60,073 bases of DNA from the IMG/VR virus record IMGVR_UViG_3300032087_004980. One strand, given 5' to 3'. The stretch is from a virus. Positions 26,193-58,555 of this stretch are shown here, one piece after another; the stretch's first letter is position 1, and each line of letters opens with the position of its first letter. Made by a program: the position numbers and the translations under genes. The notes under the pieces are model-generated. The model ran no database searches, was not told the origin of the DNA, and worked only from the letters and a program-made list of their open reading frames with translations.

Positions 26193-26200
26193 TATATTTG
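26193..26200 (+). promoter_or_regulatory. Late-type -7 box TATATTTG, 4 nt before ATG 26205
   Basis: The intergenic sequence AATTAGTATATTTGacccATG has the same 14-mer (AATTAGTATATTTG) as at 38897-38910. Confidence 0.5.
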
Positions 26201-26204
26201 ACCC

Positions 26205-26654
26205 ATGGCTACACTAACACTGTCAATTAAAGAAGACCTCATTATTGCAGGCAAACAGCAGGGGAGAACTGTTACCAAAGAGGTGACGGGGGTCAACAAC
26301 GTTTACTGCCGCTATTACGTGGTGGACAATACGGAGGATACCATCATTGATTTCCAAGCAGACAGATCTAGTGGCGGGGCTGTTGAAGATGCCACCTTGA
26401 AGTACGCTAGGTTTACTCACGCTACTGGATCAAATACCATTGATCTAAGGTTTCAGGCTACTGCAGCAAACAAAGAATATATCGTAAGACTGTCTGCAGG
26501 TGAAAGCTACTTGTTGTTTTTTGATTCCATTGACGCTGAGTCAACTTCCTCAGGCCTTGGTGGGGCTTTCTCTGGTAGTCAACTCGACGTTATAAAAGCC
26601 ATTTGCTCTTCAGGCGATGGCGCATCTCTTGAAGTATTAATCGCACAATCATAA
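26205..26654 (+). CDS. Small structural-type protein (149 aa), family with 38930 and 39322
   Basis: Shares the N-terminal MAT.T.SI pattern and the C-terminal L.AGE/GD-aromatic ... [LV]E[VF][LV] pattern with the two tandem genes at 38930-39723. Confidence 0.65.
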   Translation: MATLTLSIKEDLIIAGKQQGRTVTKEVTGVNNVYCRYYVVDNTEDTIIDFQADRSSGGAVEDATLKYARFTHATGSNTIDLRFQATAANKEYIVRLSAGESYLLFFDSIDAESTSSGLGGAFSGSQLDVIKAICSSGDGASLEVLIAQS

Positions 26655-26657
26655 ATT

Positions 26658-27155
26658 ATGAAGCACATTAAACAAATGCCTGGCGGAGGACACCTTCGCC
26701 GCATGATGGAAATGGGTGGCGCTATGGGCTCCCAAGGACAACCTTCTTTAGAGCAGCAAGCTCAAATGATCACCAGTCAAATCCTTCAGCAAGTGGGGCC
26801 AGGCCCCAACCAAAGAGCTGACTTTTTCATGAGTAACGCAGAGGGGGACTTTCAGCGCTTGAGGCCCACGGCTACTTTCCGTTATGAAGACTTTGAAAGG
26901 GAAGTTGACGGCGGTCAAGACCAGATGAATGCGGCTCTTTACCAAGCGGTTCTTCGCGCCTTGAACAATCCAAATAGCGAAGAGGCATTTCAGCTGAAGC
27001 GCATGCTTGACATGCGTAATATCCAGATGGATCGCGGTGGCGCCATGGAGTACAGATATGGAGGAAAGGTATACGCTAATAAGGGAGCTATGCTCGAAGG
27101 CATTTTGCAAGATCCTGAACAAAGAGCCGCTGCCAAGCGGATTCTTTCAGAATGA
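26658..27155 (+). CDS. Hypothetical protein (165 aa) with GG motifs
   Basis: ORF starting MKHIKQMPGGG.., with ..MEYRYGGKVYANKG.. further on. Confidence 0.7.
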   Translation: MKHIKQMPGGGHLRRMMEMGGAMGSQGQPSLEQQAQMITSQILQQVGPGPNQRADFFMSNAEGDFQRLRPTATFRYEDFEREVDGGQDQMNAALYQAVLRALNNPNSEEAFQLKRMLDMRNIQMDRGGAMEYRYGGKVYANKGAMLEGILQDPEQRAAAKRILSE

Positions 27156-27472
27156 AGCCTCTTAAGAAATATATGAACGGTGGGGTTGAGCCTTTGACCC
27201 CAAGGCAGTTCAGACAAAACGAGCGTGCACGAAGCAGAGCTGAGAGAGATGCTGCTATTGTCGAGAGGGGGGCTAAAAGCTCAAAAGACCTCCTGCGCAA
27301 CTTAGAGCAGTACGACGATAGGAAAGATAAAAGAGCCATTGTAAAGCAGATGATTAAGGCTGGCGCCATCGCACTAGGAGGGGTCGCTTTGAGCAATCTA
27401 AGGTATCCACAGGATGCGTCTGGGATGACTATGGGAGATTACATTAAAGAGCTCCGCAGGCTAAACAGATAA
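27152..27472 (+). CDS. Hypothetical protein (106 aa), N-terminal KKYxNGG motif
   Basis: MKPLKKYMNGGVEP..; ATGA overlap upstream; C-terminal hydrophobic segment. Confidence 0.7.
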   Translation: MKPLKKYMNGGVEPLTPRQFRQNERARSRAERDAAIVERGAKSSKDLLRNLEQYDDRKDKRAIVKQMIKAGAIALGGVALSNLRYPQDASGMTMGDYIKELRRLNR

Positions 27473-27921
27473 TGCGAACGGTCAAGGAAGATAGAATCAA
27501 ACGCCTGGAGCGAAGGGCTGCACGGGCAGGTGAGCGTGCGCAGGCTCGTGGCGAGGAACCTGTTGGTTACGAATCAGCCATGACTTACAGTAACCCTCGT
27601 ATGATGGGTGGGACCTATCAGAGGCCTATCTATTCTAGAGAGCAGGAGATTCTTGATATGATATCCTCACTGATTGATGACGGTGATCCTTTGACTCCAT
27701 CAATGGATCCTGGTATGTTTGAGGAAGAGTTTTCTAGATCCCCAAAGTTTCGCAGAGGAGTCGTTGAGTTCTTGCGTGATATAATGCCTGACCCAAGAAT
27801 GCGCGGTGCTGGAAAAGCGCAGTATGGTGGAGGCAAGAGCAAGGGCCTAAACATTGGGTTCTTTGGCAAGTTTGATACTAGGCAGAAAGACTACAACTGT
27901 AGGGTAAAGGGTAATTGCTAA
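27472..27921 (+). CDS. Hypothetical protein (149 aa)
   Basis: ORF with TAATG coupling; contains ..KAQYGGGKSKG.. Confidence 0.7.
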   Translation: MRTVKEDRIKRLERRAARAGERAQARGEEPVGYESAMTYSNPRMMGGTYQRPIYSREQEILDMISSLIDDGDPLTPSMDPGMFEEEFSRSPKFRRGVVEFLRDIMPDPRMRGAGKAQYGGGKSKGLNIGFFGKFDTRQKDYNCRVKGNC

Positions 27922-28401
27922 ATGAAGCTATCTAAAAATTTATCTCTAGAAGAGGTTACAAAAAGCATCACGGCTAAACGACGTGGTATAGACAATACGC
28001 CAGATGAGTGGGTTACAGAAAATCTTAGACAAGTTGCGATCAACATTTTTCAACCTGTGCGCGAGCATTTCAAGTGTCCTATATTCGTGTCGAGCGGCTA
28101 TCGTTCAGCGGAACTCAACAAGGCGATTGGCGGTTCAAAGCGTAGTCAGCATGTGGAGGGTAGAGCATTCGACCTTGACGCAGATGTATTTGGACGTGTG
28201 TCGAACAGTAGCATATTCAACTACATACGAGAAAATCTACAATTTGATCAGCTCATTTGGGAGTTTGGTGATGAAGATAATCCTGATTGGGTGCACGTGT
28301 CTTACGTTTACGATGGCGTTAATCGTGGCAGGTGCCTCAAGGCTCTTCGAGATGATAAAGGAAAAGTGTACTACGAAGTAATATTTGGTAAGGGGTTATG
28401 A
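27922..28401 (+). CDS. Peptidase M15 family endolysin (L-alanyl-D-glutamate / D-Ala-D-Ala peptidase type)
   Basis: SGYRSAELNKAIGGSKRSQHVEGRAFDLD (H-x6-D) and DWVHVS, the zinc ligand pattern of M15 cell-wall peptidases. Confidence 0.85.
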   Translation: MKLSKNLSLEEVTKSITAKRRGIDNTPDEWVTENLRQVAINIFQPVREHFKCPIFVSSGYRSAELNKAIGGSKRSQHVEGRAFDLDADVFGRVSNSSIFNYIRENLQFDQLIWEFGDEDNPDWVHVSYVYDGVNRGRCLKALRDDKGKVYYEVIFGKGL

Positions 28402-29201
28402 TAGGACTAGGATTAGGGGCAACCCACGCATCGCCGCTTCAAGCAGCCACTGAGGTAGACAATACCATATCAGACACAAAAGCCTTTGAGTTTGATGGAA
28501 CGAATGATGTCGTTATCGCCCCAGCATCTGTTGATATTTTTAATGGCAGTGGAGGATCAATATCTTTTTGGGCAAAAGACGGTGACTTTTCAAACAAGAC
28601 TTTTATTAATAAGTATTCATCTGGTGATAATCAGTGGGCAATAGGAATACAAGAGATAGCAGGAAATGATGCTATGTTTTTCCAAGGTGTTGACGACGCT
28701 GGTGGAGGTTCAGTTACCTCTAAATTTTACTCAAGCTTCTTATCAAACTTAACTAACTACAATCACTTTGTAGTTGTCGTAGACGACTCTAGTACGTCTA
28801 ATTTTCTTGCAAATTCAAAGATCTATGTGAACGGTTCTGCTACAAGTTCAATCTTTAGTGGAGGATTAAATGTTAGTGCAACAGTGGATTTTGACAATAC
28901 TGGATCTCTTCTTGTAGGCGCTTCAACCAACACCGCCAGAACTCATGTTGATGAGATCAATGAAATAGCTTTTTTTAGCACTGCTCTAAGTGCTGCAGAG
29001 GTCACAGCTATTTACAATAGCGGAACCCCCACAAATCTAACGGTAAACAAAGGGGACTATGCTTCTGCCAGCTCTCTTGAGCTGTATATCAGAGGAGAAG
29101 AAACGATTGGATCAGCACCTCAATTTCCGTTCACAGATTCCAGTGGTAACAGTGTTTCTTGCTTCGCGCTTGGCAATTCAATAATTGATAGCACCCTTTA
29201 A
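28398..29201 (+). CDS. LamG / concanavalin-A-like lectin domain protein
   Basis: FEFDGTNDVV..SISFWAK..KIYVNG..VDEINEIAFFSTALSAAEVTAIYNSGTP is the typical Laminin_G_3 signature. Confidence 0.75.
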   Translation: MIGLGLGATHASPLQAATEVDNTISDTKAFEFDGTNDVVIAPASVDIFNGSGGSISFWAKDGDFSNKTFINKYSSGDNQWAIGIQEIAGNDAMFFQGVDDAGGGSVTSKFYSSFLSNLTNYNHFVVVVDDSSTSNFLANSKIYVNGSATSSIFSGGLNVSATVDFDNTGSLLVGASTNTARTHVDEINEIAFFSTALSAAEVTAIYNSGTPTNLTVNKGDYASASSLELYIRGEETIGSAPQFPFTDSSGNSVSCFALGNSIIDSTL

Positions 29202-29203
29202 CA

Positions 29204-29476
29204 ATGAGTAATCGTATAGATAGGTTTAGGTACGTTATTGTTGATTACGACAACATAACAGATCAAATGCTTTCTGAAACGGAGTGTGCTGGAAAAGAAT
29301 ACATTTATGTATCTCACAGCGGAACGAAAAGGGGTATACTTAGATACGTTGTAAACAGCAAGCCCTCTTCTTTGATTGGTGTTACCTCCTACACTCACAG
29401 TGAAATCGTTTCTATAACAGAAGATCCTGATGGAGATTGGTATGTAGCCCCATCACCTGTTCCTGAAATACCCTAA
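29204..29476 (+). CDS. Hypothetical protein (90 aa)
   Basis: ORF with ATG start, 2 nt after the upstream stop. Confidence 0.65.
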   Translation: MSNRIDRFRYVIVDYDNITDQMLSETECAGKEYIYVSHSGTKRGILRYVVNSKPSSLIGVTSYTHSEIVSITEDPDGDWYVAPSPVPEIP

Positions 29477-29480
29477 GCAT

Positions 29481-29903: not shown

Positions 29904-29907
29904 TTAA

Positions 29908-30213: not shown

Positions 30214-30214
30214 A

Positions 30215-30454: not shown

Positions 30455-30457
30455 TTC

Positions 30458-31323: not shown

Positions 31324-31339
31324 GGCTGCTAAACGACTG

Positions 31340-32023: not shown

Positions 32024-32100
32024 CCGCGAGTATCTCCTCAAGCTTATACCTTGTTGAAAGAGTAATTGGTTACATGTGGGTTCAAGCCCCACCTCGCGGA
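32024..32100 (+). other. tRNA-like element with a perfect acceptor stem and T-arm but a non-canonical core (pseudo-tRNA or atypical tRNA)
   Basis: CCGCGAG/CTCGCGG 7-bp acceptor plus discriminator A. GTGGG-TTCAAGC-CCCAC T-arm. No D-arm can be folded. The internal hairpin CAAG-CTTATAC-CTTG has a 7-nt loop with U33/A37-like positions (would read UAU). Confidence 0.4.
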
Positions 32101-32121
32101 CTTTAATTAAATTTGTACCAC

Positions 32122-32195
32122 GCCCCTGTAGCTCAACAGGATAGAGCAACGCACTTCTAATGCGTAGGTTTCAGGTTCGAGTCCTGACAGGGGTA
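32122..32195 (+). tRNA. trnR: tRNA-Arg (anticodon UCU)
   Basis: Hand-folded cloverleaf. Acceptor GCCCCTG/CAGGGGT, D-arm GCTC-AACAGGATA-GAGC, anticodon arm ACGCA-CTTCTAA-TGCGT, T-arm TCAGG-TTCGAGT-CCTGA, discriminator A. Confidence 0.9.
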
Positions 32196-32209
32196 CGAAA
32201 TTAAATACA

Positions 32210-32341
32210 ATGGCAAAACAACTAACTCCAGTTTACGAGAAGCGGCGCGTCAGAAGAAAGGGTGTGCACGCAAAGACCAAGCAGTCTAAGAACAAGAACT
32301 CTAAAAACTACAAGAAGCGTTATGCCTCTCAGGGACGATGA
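32210..32341 (+). CDS. Highly basic mini-ORF (43 aa) translationally coupled to terL
   Basis: MAKQLTPVYEKRRVRRKGVHAKTKQSKNKNSKNYKKRYASQGR; the stop overlaps the terL ATG (ATGA). Confidence 0.4.
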   Translation: MAKQLTPVYEKRRVRRKGVHAKTKQSKNKNSKNYKKRYASQGR

Positions 32342-34476: not shown

Positions 34477-34484
34477 TATATTTG
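34477..34484 (+). promoter_or_regulatory. Late-type -7 box TATATTTG upstream of the portal gene
   Basis: Intergenic CTTATATTTGcataaatgactaagcttgcataATG. Confidence 0.4.
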
Positions 34485-34506
34485 CATAAATGACTAAGCT
34501 TGCATA

Positions 34507-36936
34507 ATGTATAGCAAAAACAAAAACAGCGCTAATTTTCCTGACCCACTTGTTAGTCAAGAGATAAAGGCCGCAAAAGAATACGGGCTTAAATATGCAA
34601 AAGCTGTTGAAAGTCAGTGGGGAGATTTTGCAAATACAGAATCGCTATACAGAAAAAGAAATAAAATATTCGAGAAAAACAGAGAGTATGCGAACGGAAC
34701 TCAAGACACTTCCATTTACAAGCAGCTTCTTAATTCTCTCGATCCTAACAACGGGGATGGATCTCTCATAAACCTTGACTACACTCCCGTCCCTATCCTC
34801 CCCAAGTTTGCTAAGGTTGTTTCAAACAAGATCCTGTCTCGCAACCCATACCCCAATCTTGAGGCTATCGACCCCGTTTCTTCTTCAGAAAAGAACAATG
34901 AAAAGAGCAGGATTAGAAATCAAGTCCTTCTCAAGGATAAGTTGCTTGAGCTCAAGGAGATAACAGGAGGTCTAGTTCTTGACGAAGATCCAGAGAAGCT
35001 TCCAGATACTTTGGAGGAGGCTGAAATCCTTATTGAGACAAACGTCAAAACTGATGCAGAGGTGGCTGCCCAGGTTGCCACAAACCTGACTTTAAATTGG
35101 AATGACTTCAATGACAACACCTACAGAAGGGCTGTTAATGATCTGACCTCTCTGGGAATGTCTGTTGTGAAAAGAAGCAACGATCCCAACTATGGCATTA
35201 AGGTTGATTACGTTGATCCTATTGACTTTGTCCACAGTTACACGGAAGATCCTGGAATGAATGACTTGATTTACGCAGGTCATATCAAAAGAATATCTAT
35301 TGCTGAACTTAAGCGCCTTGCGGGCGATCATTTTACGGAAGAGGATTATGAAGAGATTGCTAAAAAGTCCACACGTTATTCTGCTGGATCAAGCAACAAA
35401 GGGTACTTTGATTCTTACATGAACAAAATGAAGTATGAGTATGACGACTATATGGTCGAAGTGCTTGACTTTGAGTTCATGTCTGTGGACTGCGTCTACT
35501 ACGAGGAAAAACAAAATCGTCACGGCAACACGGGGTTTTTTCACCAGGGCTTTACCTATAAGGAAAGGGCAGGTAGCGTTTACGAAAGGACCCCACACAA
35601 GATGGAAATTGCCACTGTTTACGGAGGCAGCTACATCACAGGAACTAAAATGCTGTTTGATTACGGCATGAAAACAAACGTACCTAGAAATGTCCACGAC
35701 ATTTCAAAGTGCAATCTTTCATACTCTGCTGTTTGTACAAACATTAGACGTATGATTCCCAAGTCTATGGTTAACAGCTGCATTGGGTTTGCTGATATGC
35801 TTCAGCTTACACACCTCAAGATTCAGCAAGCCATAGCTAAAGCCAAGCCAGATGGATTGATTATTGACGTCGAAGGACTGGAGAATGTCCAGCTTGGAAA
35901 CGCGGGAGAGCTTCAACCACTTGATCTGCATGATATCTACGAGCAGACGGGTGTCTTCTATTACAGGAGTAAAAATCCAGAAGGTGGATTCCAGAACCCA
36001 CCAGTTCGCGAGATTGGTAATAGCATTCGAAATATTAATGAGCTTATTGGTTTGTACAACCATTACTTGCGAATGATTCGAGATACCACTGGTATCAATG
36101 AAATGATGGATGCATCGACTCCCAAGGGAGACACCTTGGTTGGAGTTCAACAAAATGCTATCGCAGCTGGCAACAACGCCATCTACGACATCACCAATGC
36201 TGCAATGATTCTTTACAAGAAGACCTGCCATGACATTGTCAAGTGTTTGCAGATTCTTCCTATGGAGTCTGTCATATTCAAGGCCTATGAAAACGCCATA
36301 GGCAAAACAAACATGGGTGTGCTGTCTTCTTTTGGAGACCTTCCTATGTACAACTTTGGAGTCACGGTTGTTAAGGACATGGAGGATCAAGACAAGATTT
36401 ATCTTGAGCAAAGCATCCAGCAGTCCTTGGCACAAAAGGAGATTGATCTCGAAGACGCGATTGCGATCAGAACAATCAAGGACATCAACCAGGCGGAGCG
36501 CCTTTTGATCCTGAGGAGAAAGAAGCGTATTGAGAGAGTGCAAAAGCAAGCAGCTGAGAATGCTCAGATGCAAGCTCAGCAAGCACAGGCTGCCGCACAG
36601 GCTGCCTCTCAGGGCCGCATGCAGGAGATGCAACTAGAAGCACAGATGAAGGCTCAGGAGATGCAGCTTAAGAATCAGCTTGAGGCGCAACTAGAGCAGG
36701 TCAAGCATCAGTTCCGCAAAGAGATTGAAATCATTAGAGCTCAGGCAACCCTTGGATTTAGAACTGAGGAGCAAGAGTTTAAAGAAAAGCTTGAGGTCTT
36801 GAAGGAGGATCGCAAGGACACAAGAGTCAAGAAGCAGGCAGTTGAGCAGAGTAAGCTAATATCTCAAAGAAGGGGGCAGAGACCAGAGCTTCGAGACGAA
36901 CCAGAACAATCAGTAAATCTAGCAGACCTTCTTTAA
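34507..36936 (+). CDS. Portal protein (putative) with Gln/Ala-rich coiled-coil C-terminal extension
   Basis: 809 aa ORF immediately after terL. C-terminus ..QAAENAQMQAQQAQAAAQAASQGRMQEMQLEAQMKAQEMQLKNQLEAQLEQ.. Confidence 0.65.
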   Translation: MYSKNKNSANFPDPLVSQEIKAAKEYGLKYAKAVESQWGDFANTESLYRKRNKIFEKNREYANGTQDTSIYKQLLNSLDPNNGDGSLINLDYTPVPILPKFAKVVSNKILSRNPYPNLEAIDPVSSSEKNNEKSRIRNQVLLKDKLLELKEITGGLVLDEDPEKLPDTLEEAEILIETNVKTDAEVAAQVATNLTLNWNDFNDNTYRRAVNDLTSLGMSVVKRSNDPNYGIKVDYVDPIDFVHSYTEDPGMNDLIYAGHIKRISIAELKRLAGDHFTEEDYEEIAKKSTRYSAGSSNKGYFDSYMNKMKYEYDDYMVEVLDFEFMSVDCVYYEEKQNRHGNTGFFHQGFTYKERAGSVYERTPHKMEIATVYGGSYITGTKMLFDYGMKTNVPRNVHDISKCNLSYSAVCTNIRRMIPKSMVNSCIGFADMLQLTHLKIQQAIAKAKPDGLIIDVEGLENVQLGNAGELQPLDLHDIYEQTGVFYYRSKNPEGGFQNPPVREIGNSIRNINELIGLYNHYLRMIRDTTGINEMMDASTPKGDTLVGVQQNAIAAGNNAIYDITNAAMILYKKTCHDIVKCLQILPMESVIFKAYENAIGKTNMGVLSSFGDLPMYNFGVTVVKDMEDQDKIYLEQSIQQSLAQKEIDLEDAIAIRTIKDINQAERLLILRRKKRIERVQKQAAENAQMQAQQAQAAAQAASQGRMQEMQLEAQMKAQEMQLKNQLEAQLEQVKHQFRKEIEIIRAQATLGFRTEEQEFKEKLEVLKEDRKDTRVKKQAVEQSKLISQRRGQRPELRDEPEQSVNLADLL

Positions 36937-37408: not shown

Positions 37409-37575
37409 TTGTTGAGGTAACAGCATCTAATCAGGATTCTATGAGCATTGTTTTAAGTAATGGCTCTACATTTTTGTTTCAGCAAAAAACAAATGCAATT
37501 ACTTTAACTGAACAAGATCAGGCGGCAACAGAAGTCATAGAAGTTGCGCAGGATTCAATAGTTATATTTGTGTAA
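37405..37575 (+). CDS. Small ORF (56 aa)
   Basis: Hand translation gives MIVEVTASNQDSMSIVLSNGSTFLFQQKTNAITLTEQDQAATEVIEVAQDSIVIFV. ATGA and TAATG couplings fill an otherwise empty 167-nt gap. Confidence 0.5.
   Translation: MIVEVTASNQDSMSIVLSNGSTFLFQQKTNAITLTEQDQAATEVIEVAQDSIVIFV
37563..37570 (+). promoter_or_regulatory. Late-type -7 box TATATTTG, 4 nt before ATG 37575
   Basis: TTATATTTGtgtaATG, the same box-to-ATG spacing as at 26205 and 46453. Confidence 0.4.
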
Positions 37576-38902: not shown

Positions 38903-38910
38903 TATATTTG
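38903..38910 (+). promoter_or_regulatory. Late-type -7 box TATATTTG
   Basis: AATTAGTATATTTG (identical 14-mer at 26187-26200), 19 nt before ATG 38930. Confidence 0.5.
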
Positions 38911-42942: not shown

Positions 42943-42961
42943 TAATCCAAAGTGAAGGGTG

Positions 42962-42989
42962 GGGGCTTTGCCCCTGCCCCTAACTTTTT
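42962..42989 (+). terminator. Hairpin plus T-run after the capsid gene
   Basis: GGGGC-ttt-GCCCC, then ..taacTTTTT. Confidence 0.5.
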
Positions 42990-44114: not shown

Positions 44115-44134
44115 TTGTAGATGCATGATACGAG

Positions 44135-44165
44135 AAAGGCTCCTACGGGGGCCTTTTTCTTTTTA
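44135..44165 (+). terminator. Rho-independent terminator
   Basis: AAAGGCTCC-tacg-GGGGCCTTT (9 bp including one G-U pair), then TTCTTTTT. Confidence 0.8.
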
Positions 44166-44166
44166 C

Positions 44167-44174
44167 TATATTTG
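44167..44174 (+). promoter_or_regulatory. Late-type -7 box TATATTTG directly after the terminator
   Basis: TTTTTACTATATTTGtaaggaataaaatgcaATG. Confidence 0.45.
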
Positions 44175-46407: not shown

Positions 46408-46440
46408 AAGAGAGGCCCTTAGGGGCCTCTTTTGTTTTTG
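46408..46440 (+). terminator. Rho-independent terminator
   Basis: AAAAGAGGCCC-ttag-GGGCCTCTTTT, then GTTTTTG. Confidence 0.85.
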
Positions 46441-46448
46441 TATATTTG
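46441..46448 (+). promoter_or_regulatory. Late-type -7 box TATATTTG, 4 nt before ATG 46453
   Basis: TTTTTGTATATTTGctatATG. The box lies downstream of the ORF-track start at 46432, which argues for the 46453 start. Confidence 0.5.
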
Positions 46449-46452: not shown

Positions 46453-47253
46453 ATGATATCTGTAGTAGAAGTGTACAATGCTGTTCGCGATTTGTCGAAC
46501 CAGGACCAAAAGGGCTTTGTAACTCCACAGGTGTTTAACTCCTTTGCTGCCGCAGCACAGAACAACGTGTTCGTAAAGATTGCTGACAAGATGATTGCAG
46601 CAAAGAATGCAAGGATGAGAGGTATTGATCTTGCAGAGTCAGACTCACTGTTGGTAAAGTACAAAAACTTTATGTCGAATTATGAAAAAACAATTCGACT
46701 GGTATCAAGAGAAGGAGATCAGTTAGACCAGCCTGTATTTACATCCTCTGGAAGTGACATTGACACTCAGGCAATTAGAAAGCCTGCTGATTGTTACTCT
46801 GTCATATCCATATTTGACACAGAGGATAAGGCTGGAGTCAAGAACTTTGAGCTTGTGTACAACTCCAGAGATATGGCAAGGATTCTAAGAAGTAGTCTTT
46901 CTGCTCCTACAAAAGAGTTTCCTGTTGCACTTATTTCAAACAACATAGAGCTGTTTCCTGAAATGGATGAGGTGTCTGATAACGTTAGGCTTACTTACTA
47001 TAGGACTCCTTCCTCTAGAACCATTATGGCAGGTACGCTTGCTGCAAATTCAGTTGATACTTTTTCAAGCCCAAACATATCTATCCTAAGTAATCAAGTT
47101 CAATCTGCTGGTGTTGATTTGAGAAACAGTAGAAACTTCGATCTTCCTCTTGACATGTTTCCTGAGCTGATGGAAGAAATTACATCTATGATTGGAATCA
47201 ATCTTAGAGATCCCTTTATGATAAAGGTCGCTCCTAAAGTAGTTAAGAAGTAA
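46453..47253 (+). CDS. Virion-module protein (266 aa)
   Basis: ORF; start placed after the terminator and promoter box. Confidence 0.7.
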   Translation: MISVVEVYNAVRDLSNQDQKGFVTPQVFNSFAAAAQNNVFVKIADKMIAAKNARMRGIDLAESDSLLVKYKNFMSNYEKTIRLVSREGDQLDQPVFTSSGSDIDTQAIRKPADCYSVISIFDTEDKAGVKNFELVYNSRDMARILRSSLSAPTKEFPVALISNNIELFPEMDEVSDNVRLTYYRTPSSRTIMAGTLAANSVDTFSSPNISILSNQVQSAGVDLRNSRNFDLPLDMFPELMEEITSMIGINLRDPFMIKVAPKVVKK

Positions 47254-48155
47254 TGGCATACGTAGACTATTCAACAAAGGGGATGACGTATGTACCCCTT
47301 CGTCAGATTATTGATGATTTTCTTATTACGCTTGACGAGGATGATCATATTTCAAACGCTTCTGACGTTACTGTCCGCAACATTGCTTTGCGCGGTATAA
47401 GAGAGTTTGGCTTTGATGTAACCACCAGAATCAAATCTGTAAAGCTTAGTATTGACTCTACAAACGATACAGTCGCTTTGCCTGAAGACTTTGTTGACCT
47501 AACCAAAGTGGGTGTAGTGGATGAAGACGGCGTCATCCGTGTGATGCGCCAAAACAAAAACCTTAACTTTTCGCAAAAGATTGTAGCTGACAGAACTGGC
47601 GGAACTCTTCAAGATTCAGAGGGGTACACAGGAACACCCGCAGGCGACGCTACGCCGCCCCTTATGATTCAGCAAAATGCTGACCTTATTCCAAACAAAG
47701 AGGACAGCAAGGGCGCCACGGCTGGACAGGCGGGTAGCAGCTCTGTAGAGCTAAGGGAGGATGTTTTCAGAAACTACTTGTATGAAAATACTTTAGGTGC
47801 ATTGTATGGATTAGGTGGGGGTGTTGGTGCGGGCGAATACAGATTGAATCTCGATCAGTTTAGATTGGAGCTTGCAACAAACTCCAACACAACAGAGATT
47901 GTTCTTGAGTATATTTCAGATGAAGCGCGTAGCACCAATCCCTTGGTGCATGTATATGCAGAGGAAGCTCTGCGCTGCTATATTTATTACAAGGTATGTG
48001 AGCGTAAGCGCAATGTCTCTCTTGCTGAAAAAGGCAGAGCACGGGCAGAGTATTACAACGAAAGAAGAAAGGCGAGGGCACGCATTAACTCATTCTCTAA
48101 AGATGATGTCCTTGGTGTGATCAGAAAAAACTTCAAGCAGGCACCTAAGTACTAA
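47253..48155 (+). CDS. Virion-module protein (300 aa; adaptor or tail-tube candidate by position)
   Basis: ORF with TAATG couplings on both sides; precedes the giant tail-like gene. Confidence 0.7.
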   Translation: MAYVDYSTKGMTYVPLRQIIDDFLITLDEDDHISNASDVTVRNIALRGIREFGFDVTTRIKSVKLSIDSTNDTVALPEDFVDLTKVGVVDEDGVIRVMRQNKNLNFSQKIVADRTGGTLQDSEGYTGTPAGDATPPLMIQQNADLIPNKEDSKGATAGQAGSSSVELREDVFRNYLYENTLGALYGLGGGVGAGEYRLNLDQFRLELATNSNTTEIVLEYISDEARSTNPLVHVYAEEALRCYIYYKVCERKRNVSLAEKGRARAEYYNERRKARARINSFSKDDVLGVIRKNFKQAPKY

Positions 48156-51100: not shown

Positions 51101-54100
51101 AGACGAAGAGTTGTTAATGAATTAAATGCTCAAATTCTGGATTCAGAAAATCTTCTGAATGAGTATGATCATGCAGAGGATATTTTGAGGCGAGTCTTAG
51201 GTTACACCCTTGTTGATGGTGAGGCTGGTCCAGGGTCAAATGCTGACATTGGCAGTGTCAACGCCACTACCCTTAGGGATGGGATATTGTATTACTTTGC
51301 TGGGGGAGAGTCAGACGTTAGCCCCACGTACAACAACCCTAATGCCTTGAGATCGCACTTTGAGACGATGAGAAGCGATTCTCTTTATAATTATGAAAGT
51401 GGTGATCTCGCAGGAGACTTAGTGTTTGACAGAACTCCTAATATGACAGCCAATGGAGAGCTGTTGGTTGATGGTTTTGTTGGAAGCCCAAATGGCTTGG
51501 CGCTTGGATATTGGATTAACCCGTTTGAATACTACATGGGATATGTATCTACAGGTACTTCAGATGGACAGTCAGTACATGATTTGCCATATAGCCTTAA
51601 TGACGTCCAAACTCTAAATGCTTTTGATGGAAAGCTTAACAAGGAAATTAAAAATACTGGGTACGTCAACATAAACTTCACCAGCTTTATAGAACAAGAT
51701 CAGATAGAGTTTTCTGGCACAGAAAATGTCCCCTCTTATACGATTACGGATCCGCTTGGATGGTATAGGCAATTAATTCCACATATTGAAATCACATCAC
51801 AGTTGTCATTTGTTGCGGTTGGGGGGGACTCAGCGGATAGAAAAACGTTTAAGGCCAACGCTTTTCACGATTTTGGGATTGTGTACTCTGATTTTTATGG
51901 GAGACAAAGTAGCGTTTTCCCACTAGGCACAACGTTTGTTCCGCCCATGGCTGAGCAAGAGGGGAATGTGGGGCTTGGAGGCCCAGTGGATATCAGTATT
52001 CAGATTAATAATGAGCCTCCATCTTGGGCTTATTCTTATCAAATTGTGTATGCTGGCAACACATCATACGATAAGTTTATACAATATAGCGTTGGAGGAG
52101 GGTTTGTAACGGACACAGAGTTTGATTTAAACGATGACTTGGGTGTAGTTTCTACAGGAAACATCTATGTTTCTTTAAATTACCTTCAAGGCAACAGTGA
52201 TGTCTCTTATGTAGACGCATTTGGTGCAAGGCCTGCTGATGGCAGCGATACGTTTTATCAGTATAGACCAGGCGATAAGCTAAGAGTTATTTCTTACAAC
52301 GAGGGCGGTGCTAGAATTTACGCGAACAACGTGGAGTTTGACATTGTTGACGTAGTCACACTTGGGAGTGACACTGATCAGAACCCTCTGTACTCGCCTG
52401 TAAACCAGGAGGAGATACCAAAGTATCTTACGGGTACTTTTGTGGTGCTAAAAAACAATCCTACCGCCAGCGGTTTTAGCGTCAACTCAATTCAAACAAA
52501 CATTCTTCCCAATTCCTCTTCACTCTGGAACAACAGGTGTGTAGTTGAGATTTATACGCCTTCCTTGTTGAGAGATAGCGATGAGGTGGCGTATAGAGAA
52601 ATAGGCGAGTCTTACAAGGTTTTGAGGGGGCCAGACCCTAACGGTCCTATTGGATCAGCTGTATTGAGTCACCAGTATAATCCTCTCACCCTCAAAGATG
52701 GAGATGTGTACTTTAGAAGACACGCTGTAAACCTCGCGCCTCTTTCTGATGGGCAATTTCAAAGCATTGTCCAACCCATTGGATCGTCCATTCCAGCGTT
52801 TTTCAACTTTTATTTAGAGTCAGAAACATTTAGCGACACAATTCTAAGAGCAAATCAGTATAGTTACGGTAGGGCAAAATTGGTGGATCCTAACGCTGCT
52901 GAGGTTAGAAGGTATGCAAGCATAATTTTCTCAGATCAAGACGACTACACAGATGTACAACTGAGGCTTAATTCGTATGACGCCACAAAGCAGCCTTTTA
53001 AAGATCTCCCCAATTCATACGGTTCTATTGCTTGCATATTGGATTATAATGATAGCCTATTTGTTCTGCAAAACACAAAGGTTAGTTCAGTTCCAGTGAA
53101 CAGAACGATTGTTTCTGATGCCTCTGGATCTGAAACGGTTCTTGCTACATCAAAAGTTCTTGGCGTTCAAAGGTTTTACGCTGGCGAGAACGGCTGTGAC
53201 ACAAATCCAGAATCTGTTGCTATGTACGGCAACACAATATTCTGGGCGAATAAGCAAAGAGGAGAAGTATATAAGTTTAATCTTTCTTCAGGTGTTTCGA
53301 TTATTTCTGACAGGGGCATGAAGTCTTATTTCAGAGATATGTTTTCTACTCTTTTAAACTCTCCTGGAAAAACGAGAGTTGCTGGAGGGTATGATGCAGA
53401 ACACGACGAGTATATCATTTCTGCCTACAACCAAAATATTCTTGACTTTACAGGGTCTATTTTTGTATTCCAGGACGATGCATTCCCGTCTGATACTGCA
53501 GAAGATGAATTTATTGATTTCACCACGCAGCAGGGAGACCTTACTTTGGAGGAAGAGGCTGGTTTGATTGCTGATTTAGAGCAAGCTCAGCTAGACCTAC
53601 AGGTATATCTTAACTTAGAAAATAATCTTAGTGAAGCAGAGGCTGAAGTAGAATCTCTTACAGCTCAAATTGCTGTGCTTCAACAAGAACTAGCTCTTGC
53701 TAATACGGGCGGAGGTTCAGGAAATATTAGTGATTTAAATGCGGCAATATCAGATTTGATTCAGCAGGCAGCTGATGCTGATAATGAAGCTCAAGCATTT
53801 TTTGATTCTCAGGTTGGGACGATGAGCGTAGAGGAGAGTTTGCAGTCGAACACGAGAGCTCTTTTTGCGCAGACTAGAGATGTTTACGCACGAATCCTTG
53901 ATCTTCTAGGCTTTGAATATGATATAGATGATTCAGGCCTAAACCTGCTAAATCCAGGCTCCTTCCCATCCAACCCCGTCTTGGAAGTTCAAACTGCCTT
54001 TGTGGGGGGTAGTCCAATAGTTTCAGATGAACAAGAGTTTATAGACTTTCCGTTTGGGGCAAATGGACAAATACTAACAATACCTCCATGGCTTGCTGCA

Positions 54101-56494
54101 GAGCGATGTGCATCCATCATGCAACTTTGTCAGTACTTAGTCGATTGGTATGACGAGAGCGAAACTATACTCTATGGTAGAGGGGCAGTGGAGCCTTTTA
54201 CTGAAGAAGATATTGCAGATACTTTCACCACAGGATATGGCGTAGGTGTTTTCCCAAAGGAAGGCTCATTTAATTACCTTAGCATTAATACTGATATTGT
54301 AGGGGGTGATGCGGCTGGAGACGATGCCCTGGGCGGCGTCGTGGGGGCATTGGATCCGCGAGCTAAGCTAAATCAGCAGATTGAACTTTACTTTGAGTTG
54401 TTTGCGGTTGGAAGTGCTTACATTTCTGAAAATGTTCTTGAGGAGCTAGAGGCTGCTACACTGGAAGCACAAGCGGCCCAGGCATTTGCTGAAGAGAGTT
54501 TTCTCAGTGTTCTTTCTCAGATTTATGAAATTGTTCTTGGAGCTTCTACATTCCTTGTACCTGACTTGTCCAAGGAAGAGCTTCCTGAATCAGAATTAGA
54601 TTATTCAGATCCAGTAAATGTTAGTGCTGAAGATATTGATCCGTCTAATGCATTTGGATTCTTGTCACTGTCCTTTATAAATGATATTCTAGCGACAAAC
54701 GGAGATCCTTTATCTGTGTTTGCAGTGCTAGAAAGCTATGGTCAAGAAAACATTGGTTTTTCCCAAATGATTTCTAATTACATCTCGTTAGGAATACATA
54801 GCAATGTGACAGTTCCTGCGATTGAACAGTTTGAAGCAAAAGATCAACAGATAGTGAATGTCGTCACCACCAGAGATTCTCTTGCTTTTGCCTTGGCTCG
54901 TATTCTTAATTCAATAGATGTTTCGACAGACAATCAGTTCCTGCAAGCCTTAATTGATGGCGGTATAAATGCAACGTTGGCGGCAGCCATAACAAGCAGC
55001 TACGGATCTACGGGCGCTGCATTTGCTGGAATTGTAAACAGTTTTGACACAGACGGCGATGGCATTATAACAGCTGAAGAGGTTGAAGCCGCATTGCCAA
55101 CTGGAGCACTCAGCCTTGCTTTTGGATCTCTTGGAGGCAGCCAAACTTGGGAGGGAGTTAAATCAGACATTAGCGGACTTCTTGAAGGGGTGTTTAATCT
55201 TGCAGAAAGCATGGGTCTTACTGGCCCATCAGATGATTTCCAAGAAGGGTTTGACGTATCTGACGTTGAGACGCTTGAGTTTTTGAGAGCGCGCTTACAA
55301 GATCCTCTGTGGTCTGAAGGGGATGAAGCGTTTATCTCTGAAACTGTAGACGAGGCTATTCGCATAGTTCAAGGAAAAGCTGAAAGCCAGGCCTCTTTGA
55401 TATCTATCTATGAAGAGTTGGAGAGCACGTTCCAGCAAATATCCACTATAACAAATAACCTTGGTTATAGCCTGTATCAAGGGGATTTGACGGCTGATAT
55501 TCAATCAGAGGTATACAGAGGTGTTTGGCATAATGCTGTTGAGGCAGTTGCTAGAGATGTTGGGATGGCCATATCCCATCTTCGTAATTGGCAAAACCTT
55601 TTTTCTGCTCAAGTACCAAACGAATTGAATCAGTCAACAAGTACATCGTATTTGGATGGAGAGGTGTCAACACAGATCGACAACCTTGAAGAAAACATTG
55701 GGGGATACTGGGCTAATTTCTCTCCTATTGGACTGCGCGGCGTCCAAGCTGAAAATATTTTGAGCGGAGAAAACATCATGATAGACCTTGTTGGGGACGG
55801 GTCTGTTGTCGTCCCAGGCTTTAGCGGATGGCTGGGCTTGTCTTCTGTGTTGAGCAAGGTCAATCAAAACATAAAGATTTTGCTGGACCAAAGCACAGAC
55901 CTTAATCTAGATGACATGTTTTCTTTCTCCCTTGGTGCTGGGGAGACAAGCAACGTTACTAGTCTTACAGCTCAAACCTGGGCAACTCTACCAGAAAATC
56001 AGCGCAATTTGTATGCAGTAATAAATGGAGCTGGCGTTGGCACTGGTGACGTTATCAATGACTTACAGGGTGCTTTCGTAGACCCATCACTGGCATTTAC
56101 AACACAAGATGTAGCAAACTTTGTCTCTAATGCATTGAATACTGAAAGTGAGTTTTACAACGCAGACTTCGCAGACAGTGTCGTTAATGCTCTTATCCGT
56201 CCAACGTTTAGCCTTGGATATTCGAGTAATGAGTCTCAACAAACAGGTGACTTTAATCAAGACGGCATTGCTTCATTTAATGACCTAACTGATCTTATGT
56301 TTGTTATGATAAATGAGCACAGCGCGTCGAATCTGCAGATTTATGGTACCGTTAACTTCGTGGAGCTGCCTGACCAATTCACTCTTCCAGGAGGGACTTT
56401 AGATGCTCTTCAAGCTATCGCCTCTGTTACTTCTGGCACTCCATTCCAGGGGTCTAGCGATGCTTCATTCTACGATCAATTCACAGAGGAATAA
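48155..56494 (+). CDS. Giant virion protein (2779 aa; tail/fibre-like) with a central coiled coil and two EF-hand/dockerin-like Ca-binding loops
   Basis: 8.3-kb uninterrupted ORF. Coiled coil ..LEQAQLDLQVYLNLENNLSEAEAEVESLTAQIAVLQQELALA... DTDGDGIITAEE (nt 55046-55081) and DFNQDGIASFND (nt 56249-56284). Confidence 0.85.
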   Translation: MAVNKVFPRVLSKSKDTRVRKKTEMSDALNVRATESLDAFKKGLDESGDAGNEISNSGNMGVVKPVLGNTIIGVEGSGDGIVDAQSQYSIIGSVTDEAKGVVYFFMWHQNPSKHGVLMYDDAVGNVQIVFQNRFFNFYYNSVVQGSVTHVSSVESGQGVGEKTFLYFTDNYNEPRCLDILACLRGDYIGYNDAELVEFISMCPITPLRSIVPVWGYDPVRTSSAFRNSRGLQFAYQNVYNNGTVSAFSIYSKLAVNPAYLGQGADPTPDVEGYNFISVRIPEQSKNVDYIKLYGREGNDGAWFYIDDLRSSEAAAGSEWTGPHNGDLAVNANNEGIIPYVYYAYRYYGDRLISYVPEDITFKQFDSVPKLAEAFDICNDRSFFGNYVEGFDKVAIDANISYVSRPRPDDFQEVDLKLVPEVRALPQKTNFNLETGEFTDLVRNRVSGFRLDMSGAPEVFDPGTTLNISITCNPDKNIHLYQAQDSFHSSIFVTHDPGGSSDLKDKVQEDGGAVFENTLLSKGFNPIQQAHGKVSSVQSPSLFSGMPNLTVKDLGWDPIANLEETYQNRPSAVWNSSSPNESSAEVCYGTSASNPLILSGRVMTFNVRLLVNNSITRSELKGFIGAVLTGAEIILPSQGPAGPGQLVSSDVTIIDVKSTSSYSIDLGLNSYDYFSSQSPSGQKVCFVTDRTLSENSEPVNQPPCGYFIVNKADVTFGLIDCIHPTIFNPNKKYEDGSYYDLIGVNNVQTDDVFLALDLLDIQNEEVLTCIPDIKGGYQNTASCRYQALIDNHVEYVAQINPGDPDSDLLAGGVFQDQIFEFKESEYFETISNRISGWVCLRKSAVASLINGATDISELTNLLTSVATKVDVKNIYNGTYSGGVMRQYRSEPPINNNFATGITGSLGILQYPIGTEDFLGGASMPSSLSYGVEPTVFQLSFITRLLGYMDLPGRAVGSGGGVDPALDGGRPASDTNPSGTLVCTRRRVVNELNAQILDSENLLNEYDHAEDILRRVLGYTLVDGEAGPGSNADIGSVNATTLRDGILYYFAGGESDVSPTYNNPNALRSHFETMRSDSLYNYESGDLAGDLVFDRTPNMTANGELLVDGFVGSPNGLALGYWINPFEYYMGYVSTGTSDGQSVHDLPYSLNDVQTLNAFDGKLNKEIKNTGYVNINFTSFIEQDQIEFSGTENVPSYTITDPLGWYRQLIPHIEITSQLSFVAVGGDSADRKTFKANAFHDFGIVYSDFYGRQSSVFPLGTTFVPPMAEQEGNVGLGGPVDISIQINNEPPSWAYSYQIVYAGNTSYDKFIQYSVGGGFVTDTEFDLNDDLGVVSTGNIYVSLNYLQGNSDVSYVDAFGARPADGSDTFYQYRPGDKLRVISYNEGGARIYANNVEFDIVDVVTLGSDTDQNPLYSPVNQEEIPKYLTGTFVVLKNNPTASGFSVNSIQTNILPNSSSLWNNRCVVEIYTPSLLRDSDEVAYREIGESYKVLRGPDPNGPIGSAVLSHQYNPLTLKDGDVYFRRHAVNLAPLSDGQFQSIVQPIGSSIPAFFNFYLESETFSDTILRANQYSYGRAKLVDPNAAEVRRYASIIFSDQDDYTDVQLRLNSYDATKQPFKDLPNSYGSIACILDYNDSLFVLQNTKVSSVPVNRTIVSDASGSETVLATSKVLGVQRFYAGENGCDTNPESVAMYGNTIFWANKQRGEVYKFNLSSGVSIISDRGMKSYFRDMFSTLLNSPGKTRVAGGYDAEHDEYIISAYNQNILDFTGSIFVFQDDAFPSDTAEDEFIDFTTQQGDLTLEEEAGLIADLEQAQLDLQVYLNLENNLSEAEAEVESLTAQIAVLQQELALANTGGGSGNISDLNAAISDLIQQAADADNEAQAFFDSQVGTMSVEESLQSNTRALFAQTRDVYARILDLLGFEYDIDDSGLNLLNPGSFPSNPVLEVQTAFVGGSPIVSDEQEFIDFPFGANGQILTIPPWLAAERCASIMQLCQYLVDWYDESETILYGRGAVEPFTEEDIADTFTTGYGVGVFPKEGSFNYLSINTDIVGGDAAGDDALGGVVGALDPRAKLNQQIELYFELFAVGSAYISENVLEELEAATLEAQAAQAFAEESFLSVLSQIYEIVLGASTFLVPDLSKEELPESELDYSDPVNVSAEDIDPSNAFGFLSLSFINDILATNGDPLSVFAVLESYGQENIGFSQMISNYISLGIHSNVTVPAIEQFEAKDQQIVNVVTTRDSLAFALARILNSIDVSTDNQFLQALIDGGINATLAAAITSSYGSTGAAFAGIVNSFDTDGDGIITAEEVEAALPTGALSLAFGSLGGSQTWEGVKSDISGLLEGVFNLAESMGLTGPSDDFQEGFDVSDVETLEFLRARLQDPLWSEGDEAFISETVDEAIRIVQGKAESQASLISIYEELESTFQQISTITNNLGYSLYQGDLTADIQSEVYRGVWHNAVEAVARDVGMAISHLRNWQNLFSAQVPNELNQSTSTSYLDGEVSTQIDNLEENIGGYWANFSPIGLRGVQAENILSGENIMIDLVGDGSVVVPGFSGWLGLSSVLSKVNQNIKILLDQSTDLNLDDMFSFSLGAGETSNVTSLTAQTWATLPENQRNLYAVINGAGVGTGDVINDLQGAFVDPSLAFTTQDVANFVSNALNTESEFYNADFADSVVNALIRPTFSLGYSSNESQQTGDFNQDGIASFNDLTDLMFVMINEHSASNLQIYGTVNFVELPDQFTLPGGTLDALQAIASVTSGTPFQGSSDASFYDQFTEE

Positions 56495-56500
56495 AAAGTC

Positions 56501-57511
56501 ATGCCAACAATAGGATTTAGCAACAAGACAAATCAATGGACAAGCAGGTACAGCTATGCCTCCTCAGACTTTAGTAGGGTGAGGAGTAAATTTATGTCTT
56601 CGCCTAGCTCTCCTCTTGTCAATGCTCAATACGAAAGCCCTATATGGCTGCACAACTCAGGGGAGCAATACAATACATTTTATGGTAGTGCCACCCCAAG
56701 TTCTTTGGTGGTTTCGTTTAACGAAAAGTCATCTAACAACAAGATCTTTAAGACCTTTTCTATTGAAGGGAGTGGCAATCTTGAAGGGTCTTTGTCTGTA
56801 ATGAAAACCAACAATCACATAGACGTCAGGGACGTTAACGCCCCAAATCAGTCTGTTTCGATTGACTTTTTAAGGACCATCAACGGTACCACTTACGGAC
56901 CAATAGCTCAAGAAAATGGATTGTTTCCTGGTAAGAACGTCTTTAACCTGGGCAGGATTACAGGGGTAAGGTTTTCCCCCTTTACTCCTGGTCAGAGTCC
57001 TATCCCATCGCACTACAAGGTGTTTTTAGATCCAAACACAGGCATCTCACCTCAAGTATTTCAGACAGCGTCATTGCAGATGAAGATCTGCATCTTGACA
57101 GTCAATCAGTCAAACTCTCAGGGGACTAGATATTTATTCCCAAACGGTCAGCAACTAGGCGTCACACAAATGGTTGATCAGACCTACTCAACCATATCAT
57201 CTCTTACCCAGGATGTTGCCGCATTTAATGATGGGTCTTTTGCGAATGAATACGCTGCCTTTGATCCGCAAAACATGGCATTTAATTACACCTCACCCAA
57301 CAACAACTTGCAGCGGGTAATTGATTTTCAACTAGAACAGCCAAATACAGACGTGTATCTTATTGGTGTGGCCCATCCGTCTTTGGTTGGGGAGCCAGCA
57401 CGTGGCAAGTTTGCTGAAGCCTCTATTCAAATCCCTGTATCAAAGGGTTATTTTGAGATCAGCAGCCTCAACCTCCAGTACGAGCCAATCCAGCTCGCTC
57501 ACGATAAATGA
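56501..57511 (+). CDS. Virion-module protein (336 aa)
   Basis: Clean ORF, 6 nt after the giant gene. Confidence 0.75.
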   Translation: MPTIGFSNKTNQWTSRYSYASSDFSRVRSKFMSSPSSPLVNAQYESPIWLHNSGEQYNTFYGSATPSSLVVSFNEKSSNNKIFKTFSIEGSGNLEGSLSVMKTNNHIDVRDVNAPNQSVSIDFLRTINGTTYGPIAQENGLFPGKNVFNLGRITGVRFSPFTPGQSPIPSHYKVFLDPNTGISPQVFQTASLQMKICILTVNQSNSQGTRYLFPNGQQLGVTQMVDQTYSTISSLTQDVAAFNDGSFANEYAAFDPQNMAFNYTSPNNNLQRVIDFQLEQPNTDVYLIGVAHPSLVGEPARGKFAEASIQIPVSKGYFEISSLNLQYEPIQLAHDK

Positions 57512-57519
57512 TAAATACT

Positions 57520-57527
57520 TAAATTTG
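57520..57527 (+). promoter_or_regulatory. Late-type -7 box TAAATTTG, 5 nt before ATG 57533
   Basis: ACTTAAATTTGtagctATG. Confidence 0.4.
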
Positions 57528-57532
57528 TAGCT

Positions 57533-58555
57533 ATGCCTGCATTTGACATTATACACACACTAATCTTTGGGCATGACCTGCCACACCTGGTGACAGCGGG
57601 GATTGACCCGTTCACCCTTGCCATCATAGCTCAGGCAGTAGGCAGTGGAATCAAGGGCTTCAGAGACAAAGAAGAAGCAGAGGAGATTCAACAAAAGGGC
57701 GAAGAAGCCTACGACGAGTACAGCAAAAAGCTGCTTGACATTGGCAAGCAACAGCGATCTGTAGATCAGGGGGTTTATGACTTAGAGCAGAACATTCGCA
57801 AGATGAATGAGGCTCGAAGGCAGGAAATTGAAAATGCATCCAACAGGGCTGAGGCAACCTTGCTTCGTAACGTCAACAATCCAAGAGCGGCTGCCAATGT
57901 AAACGAAGCTCTTAAAAATATTTCTGTAGGCCGCGATCAGGCTTTGTTGGGCACTATGCAGGGCGATATAAATGCTCAAGCCGCTACCCTGGCCCAAGAG
58001 CAAAAGGTAGCTGACGAAAATTTTCAGCGTTTGTTTGACATGGAGAGCTTTCTTTACGGGAGCGAACTTCAAAGGGCAACGGGATCTGCTGAGGCTGCCA
58101 GACAGCAGAGAATTGATGCGGAAAACTTGTTGATCGACACACTTCCTGATGCATTTACAGCGTATGGAAATCTTCAGGATACTCCAGTCCCCACAGAGGA
58201 AGATGGGGGTATAGTAAAGGCTAAGAGCGGTTCTGCAATCATGACTCCAGGCGAGTTCAGCCACGAAACCAATCCTCAGAATGTGAGGGCAGAAGACGGG
58301 AAAATGATCCTTGAAAATAAAAAAGGGGAAGACGTTGCTGAGTTTACAGGAGGGGAGATTGTCATCACAGAAGACGGCAAGGAAGAAGGAATGTACGTCG
58401 TGGCACCAACGGATGCGGTTTCTCTTAAAGAAATGACAGAGAAGGGAGACAAAGAGGGCGTGTTTAAGTTCTGGAAAAATCTTCTTAAAAGGTTTGAGCT
58501 AGAGCAAGCAGAGCACGAGGCTAAAAAAGAGCAAATGCGAGAGGAAAATGTCTAA
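57533..58555 (+). CDS. Putative internal virion protein (340 aa; N-terminal hydrophobic segment plus coiled coil)
   Basis: ..DPFTLAIIAQAVGSGIKGF.. followed by a long charged helical region. Confidence 0.7.
   Translation: MPAFDIIHTLIFGHDLPHLVTAGIDPFTLAIIAQAVGSGIKGFRDKEEAEEIQQKGEEAYDEYSKKLLDIGKQQRSVDQGVYDLEQNIRKMNEARRQEIENASNRAEATLLRNVNNPRAAANVNEALKNISVGRDQALLGTMQGDINAQAATLAQEQKVADENFQRLFDMESFLYGSELQRATGSAEAARQQRIDAENLLIDTLPDAFTAYGNLQDTPVPTEEDGGIVKAKSGSAIMTPGEFSHETNPQNVRAEDGKMILENKKGEDVAEFTGGEIVITEDGKEEGMYVVAPTDAVSLKEMTEKGDKEGVFKFWKNLLKRFELEQAEHEAKKEQMREENV

Follow-up and report, generated by a model that had tools for sequence, protein, structure and literature searches.

How does a phage start its lysis and virion genes when the promoter-like box in front of them runs almost directly into the start codon? 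The question is raised by the IMG/VR virus record IMGVR_UViG_3300032087_004980, a stretch of 60,073 nucleotides (nt; hereafter the window) that is the genome of an uncultured marine Bacteroidota podophage. Six copies of the octamer TATATTTG and one copy of a related octamer, TAAATTTG, precede genes on its plus strand, and the initial annotation took them for late boxes lacking a -33 element, four of which might give leaderless mRNAs. On the evidence of the DNA sequence, we consider it likely that these sites are promoters of the Bacteroidota sigma-A type, each box being a consensus -7 element (TAHHTTTG, -12 to -5), and that they are read by the host RNA polymerase (RNAP), in most cases with leaderless starts.

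An exhaustive scan of both strands returned the boxes at exactly the positions first proposed. TATATTTG is found at 26193, 34477, 37563, 38903, 44167 and 46441, always on the plus strand and nowhere else, against an expected count of 1.48; six copies were reached in none of 100 shuffles, which rules out chance as the explanation. All six copies are non-coding, though only about 6.7% of the genome is (P ~9e-8 for random placement), and each lies directly upstream of a gene in the same orientation. The TAAATTTG copy at 57520 behaves like the TATATTTG sites. Among 41 plus-strand gene starts only seven have TAHHTTTG within 45 nt upstream, and these are the seven sites reported, which bears out their placement just before start codons; the pattern is also matched by a box ahead of a tRNA gene. 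The generic motif TANNTTTG is not enriched (41 found vs 38 expected) and many box-like octamers lie inside genes. The concern that equally good boxes occur within genes is thus justified for the generic motif, which is often intragenic, but not for TATATTTG, which never is. The signal is carried only by position together with the specific TAT(A/C)TTTG variant. Promoters of the E. coli sigma-70 type were considered as an explanation and rejected, as they are not enriched in the window. Two of the sites also share a 14-mer, AATTAGTATATTTG, at 26187 and 38897, as had been noticed.

The distance from box to ATG is 4 nt at 26205, 37575 and 46453 and 5 nt at 57533, in agreement with the initial annotation; the other three gaps are wider, with 22 nt (portal gene), 19 nt (38930) and 16 nt (44191). 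Finding at least four of seven sites at a spacing of 4-5 nt has a probability of ~2e-4 under a uniform 0-40 nt null. The start codon is ATG at all four closely spaced sites. Upstream of it the reading frame reaches a stop without a further start codon, save at 46453, which is preceded by an in-frame TTG at 46432, inside a terminator. In Flavobacterium johnsoniae, T-12, A-11, T-8, T-7, T-6 and G-5 of the -7 box are invariant, positions 3-4 are never G and transcription starts 4-5 nt after the box (PMC6847099), and in F. psychrophilum the same box occupies -12 to -5 (PMC9723704). Leaderless mRNAs are therefore to be expected from the phage sites, because their 4-5-nt gap to the ATG equals the published flavobacterial box-to-start distance. 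The DNA upstream of the phage boxes is T-rich and A-rich, as at the host promoters. Folding of the predicted 5' ends was uninformative, these being weakly structured throughout, the same as shuffles.

The same geometry recurs in related phages. We collected 165 related loci via the portal gene, the primase-helicase gene and the gene starting at 57533 (g57533; other genes are named likewise). For g57533, contig searches with this gene, with g56501 and with the C-terminus of a 2779-amino-acid (aa) protein gave nothing, and a protein search with contig look-ups succeeded. Contexts more than 75% identical were removed from the family-wide spacing counts given below. All 80 related loci compared at the portal gene have TATATTTGCA ahead of it, and this sequence is invariant in 45 unique 68-mers whose flanks vary. 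Orthologues of g26205 keep box, 4 nt and ATG at 30-85% aa identity, and even those at only 30-37% still have TAT(A/C)TTTG at this spacing. Across the family, down to about 30% identity, g37575 orthologues keep the 4-nt spacing with a TATATTTG, TATCTTTG, TACCTTTG or TACTTTTG box, and the TAAATTTG box with 5 nt and ATG is kept at g57533 in L081-L085 (45-80% aa identity). The 38903 site is conserved as well, with CA-rich leaders of 19-27 nt. So are the terminator-box-ATG junctions before g44191 and g46453: L004 has the same arrangement as the window at g46453, and the sites orthologous to g44191 in L024, L027 and L041 combine terminator and box with an ATG 4-5 nt on, a spacing that the window lacks there. 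In general, the box lies upstream of a co-oriented transcription unit and is more conserved than its flanks, and its G and TA positions are invariant. Given the strand and intergenic bias, the position after terminators and the invariance in relatives, the boxes behave as promoter -7 elements.

The distribution of spacings points in the same direction. Measured to a long open reading frame (ORF), non-redundant late-strand boxes fall at 3 nt once, at 4 nt 40 times, at 5 nt eight times and at 6 nt twice. When ATGs are counted after TAT[AC]TTTG (n=102 non-redundant late-strand boxes), 34, 8 and 6 stand at spacings of 4, 5 and 6 nt, with 2 at spacings 0-3 combined and 0 at 7-10. The coincidence of the 4-nt peak with the known box-to-start distance is the strongest argument that transcription would begin on the A of these ATGs. 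Conserved fixed spacing and flavobacterial geometry together thus lend support to the earlier suggestion of a -7 element with a predicted start at or next to the AUG and putatively leaderless mRNAs. The start codons themselves appear real, since orthologue alignments begin at residue 1 and g57533 homologues are of equal length. In L083-L085 (10001-10021) the database start of the g57533 orthologue lies upstream, in frame, and overlaps the promoter box, and the same holds for gp21 of the Flavobacterium phage elemoE_6-9C (L168, NC_055854.1, 46422-46442); these database starts are probably wrong, the ATG 4-5 nt after the box being the likelier start.

The portal gene, whose ATG lies at 34507, fits this picture in an indirect manner. 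Between its box and its ATG lies a 5-codon mini-ORF, MTKLA* (34490..34507, plus strand), which starts 5 nt after the box and whose TAA overlaps the portal ATG (TAATG). As this mini-ORF adds to the four genes above, an ATG stands at the expected start site after five of the seven window boxes. Among the 24 unique portal leaders of relatives, 17 place an ATG at a distance of 5-6 nt from the box, and the ORFs opened there mostly have 4-8 codons and end on or against the portal ATG, with peptides unrelated in sequence. ATA replaces ATG in 7 of the 24 leaders, and the mini-ORF is thus not universal. Portal translation may be coupled to a leaderless upstream ORF.

How would such a system work? The host sigma-A holoenzyme would recognise the boxes and initiate transcription of the rightward units for lysis, packaging, head and tail. 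Terminators at 42957, 44132 and 46408 would close units and a box would directly re-open the next, the terminator-promoter junctions splitting the rightward 47 kb into units from 26193, 32108, 34477, 37563, 38903, 44167, 46441 and 57520. Transcription would start at the fifth or sixth base after the G of the box, so that the first transcribed base would fall on or beside the ATGs at 26205, 37575, 46453 and 57533 and that of the portal mini-ORF. These four units, like the portal mini-ORF, would then have mRNAs with a 5'-terminal AUG and leaderless translation, and the remaining boxes would give short A/C-rich leaders (~12-18 nt), as expected in a phylum without Shine-Dalgarno (SD) sites. From anatomy, enrichment and conservation we infer the use of host sigma-A, the points at which transcription starts, and leaderless translation; late timing is suggested by gene function (endolysin, portal, capsid, tail).

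Some observations weigh against this reading. With three copies in the window, TAAATTTG is at chance level and not enriched by itself. Most intergenic gaps are tiny, so that compaction alone would press a promoter onto an ATG; this argument fails at 37575, because the gap there is 166 nt. In the two closest relatives, L002 (~7218) and L004 (~14542), the g37575 orthologue has GTG 4 nt after the box, a poorer leaderless start, which implies that a leaderless mRNA is initiated at GUG or that the protein starts further on, at Met13. Finally, the lack of recognisable sigma and anti-sigma genes in the window is weak evidence, as most of the small ORFs are without annotation.

An alternative, which we regard as unlikely, is that the boxes are late promoters in need of a phage sigma-like or host-sigma-remodelling factor (compare T4 gp55/gp33, AsiA and P23-45 gp39), the absence of -33 marking a separate temporal class. 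Two promoter architectures do exist in the window: none of the seven rightward boxes has TTTG 17-23 nt upstream, and hence a -33 element, in contrast to the early promoters, as the initial annotation had remarked; two of three early minus-strand promoters do have it, and the early -33/-7 promoters combine a conserved 40-bp block, TTTG at a spacer of 20 and TAYCTTTG boxes. Such early-type promoters (aaaTTTGGa, 20 nt, TATCTTTG) recur on the early strand of relatives, and family-wide a -33 TTTG accompanies 0 of 48 leaderless-class and 2 of 130 late-strand promoter-like boxes vs 8 of 65 on the early strand. There is also a precedent in P23-45, whose middle and late promoters lack a -35 element and are gp39-resistant (PMC7403470). 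However, the late box presents no new motif but simply the consensus of the host, and flavobacterial host promoters are usually without a recognisable -33, this motif being "much less evident" in F. johnsoniae than AT-rich tracts further upstream (PMC6847099) and so not obligatory. Pfam and PHROG searches of about 55 ORFs returned no sigma, RNA polymerase, AsiA-like, gp39-like or known RNAP-binding domain, nor did the sequences of the 1633-aa and 2779-aa proteins match a sigma or RNA polymerase in PDB. The step from a missing -33 element to a phage-modified or alternative sigma, as taken in the initial annotation, is therefore unsupported. Two individual candidates were rejected. The first rightward gene, g24347, considered as a regulator, is modelled by AlphaFold as an alpha/beta fold (predicted local distance difference test, pLDDT, 71.7) with no Foldseek match in PDB, and the 2779-aa protein, considered as a polymerase, is a crAss-type muzzle protein.

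A broader proposal would make a factor of this kind part of a two-tier programme across the family. Early leftward genes would use -33/-7 promoters with 34-47-nt ACTCAAAAC leaders, lysis and virion genes would use -33-independent promoters fused to start codons (the portal via a leaderless mini-ORF), and a putative phage factor, blocking sigma region 4/-33 recognition or favouring 5'-terminal AUGs, would switch from host/early to late expression. We offer this tentatively and find it rather doubtful as a whole. If true, it would not have been described before for Bacteroidota phages, and would parallel phiYS40 in a phylum without SD initiation.

Could the boxes instead be real promoters while protein comes mainly from longer, polycistronic read-through mRNAs, the tight spacing being a by-product of compaction? 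The gaps at 26188-26204 (17 nt) and 57512-57532 (21 nt) are indeed too small for a leader, and leaderless mRNAs are a minority in hosts, at 3.7% in Bacteroides thetaiotaomicron and 5.5% in F. psychrophilum (PMC9723704). The GTG at the +1 position in L002 and L004 would also fit, as would the distant cultured phage phi38:1, in which the same boxes have 21-31-nt leaders. Yet the 4-nt spacing persists where there is space to spare, as in the 166-nt gap before 37575, and the spacing distribution is sharply peaked at 4 nt, not just short. The ATG of the portal mini-ORF takes the same position though the portal gene has a leader. Moreover, a spacing of 4-5 nt is found directly behind terminators (46441; L024, L027 and L041), and because a terminator precedes the box, read-through is unlikely at these sites. 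We thus hold this explanation to be quite improbable. That the motif is no promoter at all, but acts as an AT-rich signal in translation initiation or binds a repressor or a protein of packaging or replication, is highly improbable: boxes are always near start codons and Bacteroidota, which have no SD sequences, rely on A/U-rich unstructured start regions (PMC6847099), but the invariant 8-mer stands at two distance classes (4-6 and 16-29 nt) and before a tRNA gene, its G and TA positions are as invariant as in a sigma-A box, it follows terminators, and ordinary internal phage genes have A-rich upstream regions without it.

Returning to host sigma-A promoters with leaderless starts, the reading we prefer, how do they compare with known systems? 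As a promoter element, the box falls within the ordinary Bacteroidota sigma-A class, and leaderless phage late mRNAs are already known (phiYS40). With sigma-A promoters of Bacteroidota (sigma-ABfr; B. fragilis, F. johnsoniae, F. psychrophilum; -7 TAnnTTTG, with -33 TTTG about 19-21 bp upstream of it) the phage sites share the 8-bp box without G at positions 3-4, the T/A-rich upstream DNA, a -33 that is faint or lacking, which is also a trait of F. johnsoniae host promoters, and a 4-5-nt box-to-start geometry that fits the phage ATGs. They differ in that some 40-50% of late-strand boxes in the phage family are fused to start codons, vs 3.7-5.5% leaderless host mRNAs, and in that one variant, TAT(A/C)TTTG with a C after it, accounts for nearly all phage boxes. 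T4 late promoters have TATAAATA at -10 and no -35, depend on gp55, gp33 and gp45, and give leadered late mRNAs with SD sites. They resemble the phage sites as 8-bp A/T-rich single elements before late structural genes; T4 needs its own sigma, gp55, whereas in the window the motif equals the host consensus and a gp55-like gene was not found. The lambda cI mRNA from PRM is leaderless and concerns a single regulatory gene. In Deinococcus-Thermus the -10 region adjoins ORFs (PMC12340547). In both cases a promoter element abuts an ORF and the transcript starts at the AUG, but they represent a host-wide habit or one gene, as opposed to a conserved feature of structural and lysis operons in a Bacteroidota phage family. 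In the Thermus phages phiYS40 and P23-45, the RNAP-binding proteins gp39 and gp76 have been identified, together with IF2/IF3 shifts. These phages, too, have an upstream element in early promoters and the downstream element alone in later ones; they belong to another phylum, use another consensus (extended -10 TGnTATAAT-type vs TATATTTG), and no gp39/gp76-type equivalent was found in the phage studied here. Most middle and late mRNAs of phiYS40 are leaderless (PMC3594737).

Closer to home, the Cellulophaga phage phi38:1 (Pervagoviridae) and the Flavobacterium phage elemoE_6-9C (Elemovirus) have leftward replication and rightward structural genes with TAT(A/C)TTTG boxes before the latter, often after T-rich terminators, although their capsid protein has only ~30% aa identity. 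Whereas phi38:1 differs by its longer leaders, in elemoE_6-9C the arrangement of box, 4 nt and ATG is limited to 2-3 genes, namely gp54 (ATG 19187), gp09 (ATG 4450) and probably gp21 (ATG 46440). No account of this layout in a Bacteroidota phage was found in the literature we searched, of which coverage was incomplete. The cultured Elemovirus phages could serve as an experimental handle, and the layout as an entry point to how SD-less Bacteroidota ribosomes treat 5'-terminal AUGs. Judging from the sequence comparisons, leaderless mRNA use in these phages appears roughly ten times the host frequency. Furthermore, the conserved promoter map and transcription-unit model cover an abundant, uncultured marine Bacteroidota phage family and aid the annotation of gene starts, and the compact, presumably strong promoter/start-codon cassettes might be of use in Flavobacteriia genetics.

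Box by box, the plus strand of the window would be organised as follows. The TATATTTG -7 box at 26193..26200, with its predicted leaderless ATG at 26205, heads the unit 26205-29476, which includes an M15 peptidase (endolysin). A TAAATTTG box at 32108..32115 lies 6 nt before tRNA-Arg(TCT) (32122-32196), which is separated from the terminase gene by a basic 43-codon ORF (32210-32340); this box probably serves as promoter for the unit made up of the tRNA, this small ORF and the terminase gene. Since the tRNA starts 6 nt after the box, its primary transcript would be almost without a 5' leader. Just upstream of the box, at 32024-32101, there is a remnant resembling a tRNA, in which a 7-bp acceptor stem and a T-arm (GTGGG/TTCAAGC/CCCAC) can be recognised; it has no proper D or anticodon arms and is called by neither ARAGORN nor Rfam, the Rfam scan of the window returning the tRNA only. 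The remnant is conserved in the relative L010, where it is followed by TATATTTG, 4 nt and the ATG of a small ORF.

The portal gene is served by the TATATTTG -7 box at 34477..34484, and the box at 37563..37570 by its spacing predicts a leaderless mRNA for g37575, which matches phrog_7595. The next box, at 38903..38910, has a C/A-rich leader of ~15 nt before ATG 38930 and heads a unit running to the intrinsic terminator at 42957..42979 (10 pairs, 8 GC, T tail), behind the major capsid-like gene (41485-42942). As the initial annotation had seen, two further boxes are directly preceded by strong intrinsic terminators, which we place at 44132..44159 (12 pairs, T tail) and 46408..46433 (11 pairs, T tail). 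The first of these boxes, 44167..44174, stands before ATG 44191; the second, 46441..46448, precedes the predicted leaderless start at 46453 of a virion structural protein (phrog_14543), and its unit extends through the 2779-aa muzzle-domain protein. The last, the TAAATTTG -7 box at 57520..57527, predicts a leaderless mRNA or a 1-nt leader at 57533 and heads a tail unit that crosses the genome end to 11540.

The terminal 91 bases of the window are identical (1-91 = 59983-60073), and therefore we take the genome to be complete, with a unit of 59,982 bp that is circularly closed or else terminally redundant; its junction lies within a gene for 531 aa, from 58548 to the end and then 92-161. The leftward replication module (11.6-23.9 kb) encodes a primase-helicase, an exonuclease and a DnaA-type helix-turn-helix protein. 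The rightward module begins at 24.3 kb, passes the genome end and finishes at 11.5 kb, with M15 endolysin, terminase, portal, capsid-like protein, muzzle-domain proteins and a tail protein that carries a type IX secretion system (T9SS) sorting domain. GC content is higher in the leftward early/replication module (12000-24000; 0.50-0.58, with a peak at 22-24 kb) than in the structural module (0.42-0.48). The 2779-aa protein (48155-56494) has a Crassvirus muzzle domain, and the next gene encodes a 336-aa protein (56501-57511) with a muzzle C-terminal domain; these domains tie the tail of this phage family to crAss-like phages. More than 200 related contigs are present in IMG/VR. A megablast search with the capsid region gave no nucleotide match to cultured phages, the nearest of which infect Cellulophaga, Flavobacterium and Maribacter, with a capsid identity of only ~30%. 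Because of the T9SS sorting domain and these distant relatives, the host is almost certainly a member of the marine Bacteroidota.

On the minus strand, the early-type promoter at 21112..21143 consists of TTTG (-33), a 20-nt spacer and TATCTTTG (-7), with a 34-nt leader. That at 22289..22320 has TTTG, a 20-nt spacer and TACCTTTG, and ~40 bp in common with the former; a third -7 box, TACCTTTG at 23594..23601, has the same conserved upstream block with a degenerate -33. The block that the three promoter regions (21086-21147, 22252-22324 and 23563-23601) share reads TTTGGATTCTCnACAnTTTGTTCA-TAyCTTTGC. The 34-47-nt leaders of the three promoters share ACTCAAAAC, of which the genome has five copies vs 0.72 expected, the fourth before gene 19283 and the fifth on the plus strand at 11570. 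This block or leader element may act as an operator, in translation, or in both ways. A divergent control region (23980-24346) separates the early from the rightward module; it holds (TA)7 at 24071-24084 and, at 24247, a TAACTTTG box that has GTTG 20 nt ahead of it and is followed by a ~90-nt leader before gene 24347. At the opposite boundary, a G/C hairpin (GAGAGGGGGG...CCCCCCTCTC) is found between convergent gene ends (11541-11614), and a minus-strand TACCTTTG box at 11607-11614 points at it; this box could yield a ~50-nt transcript or be due to chance.

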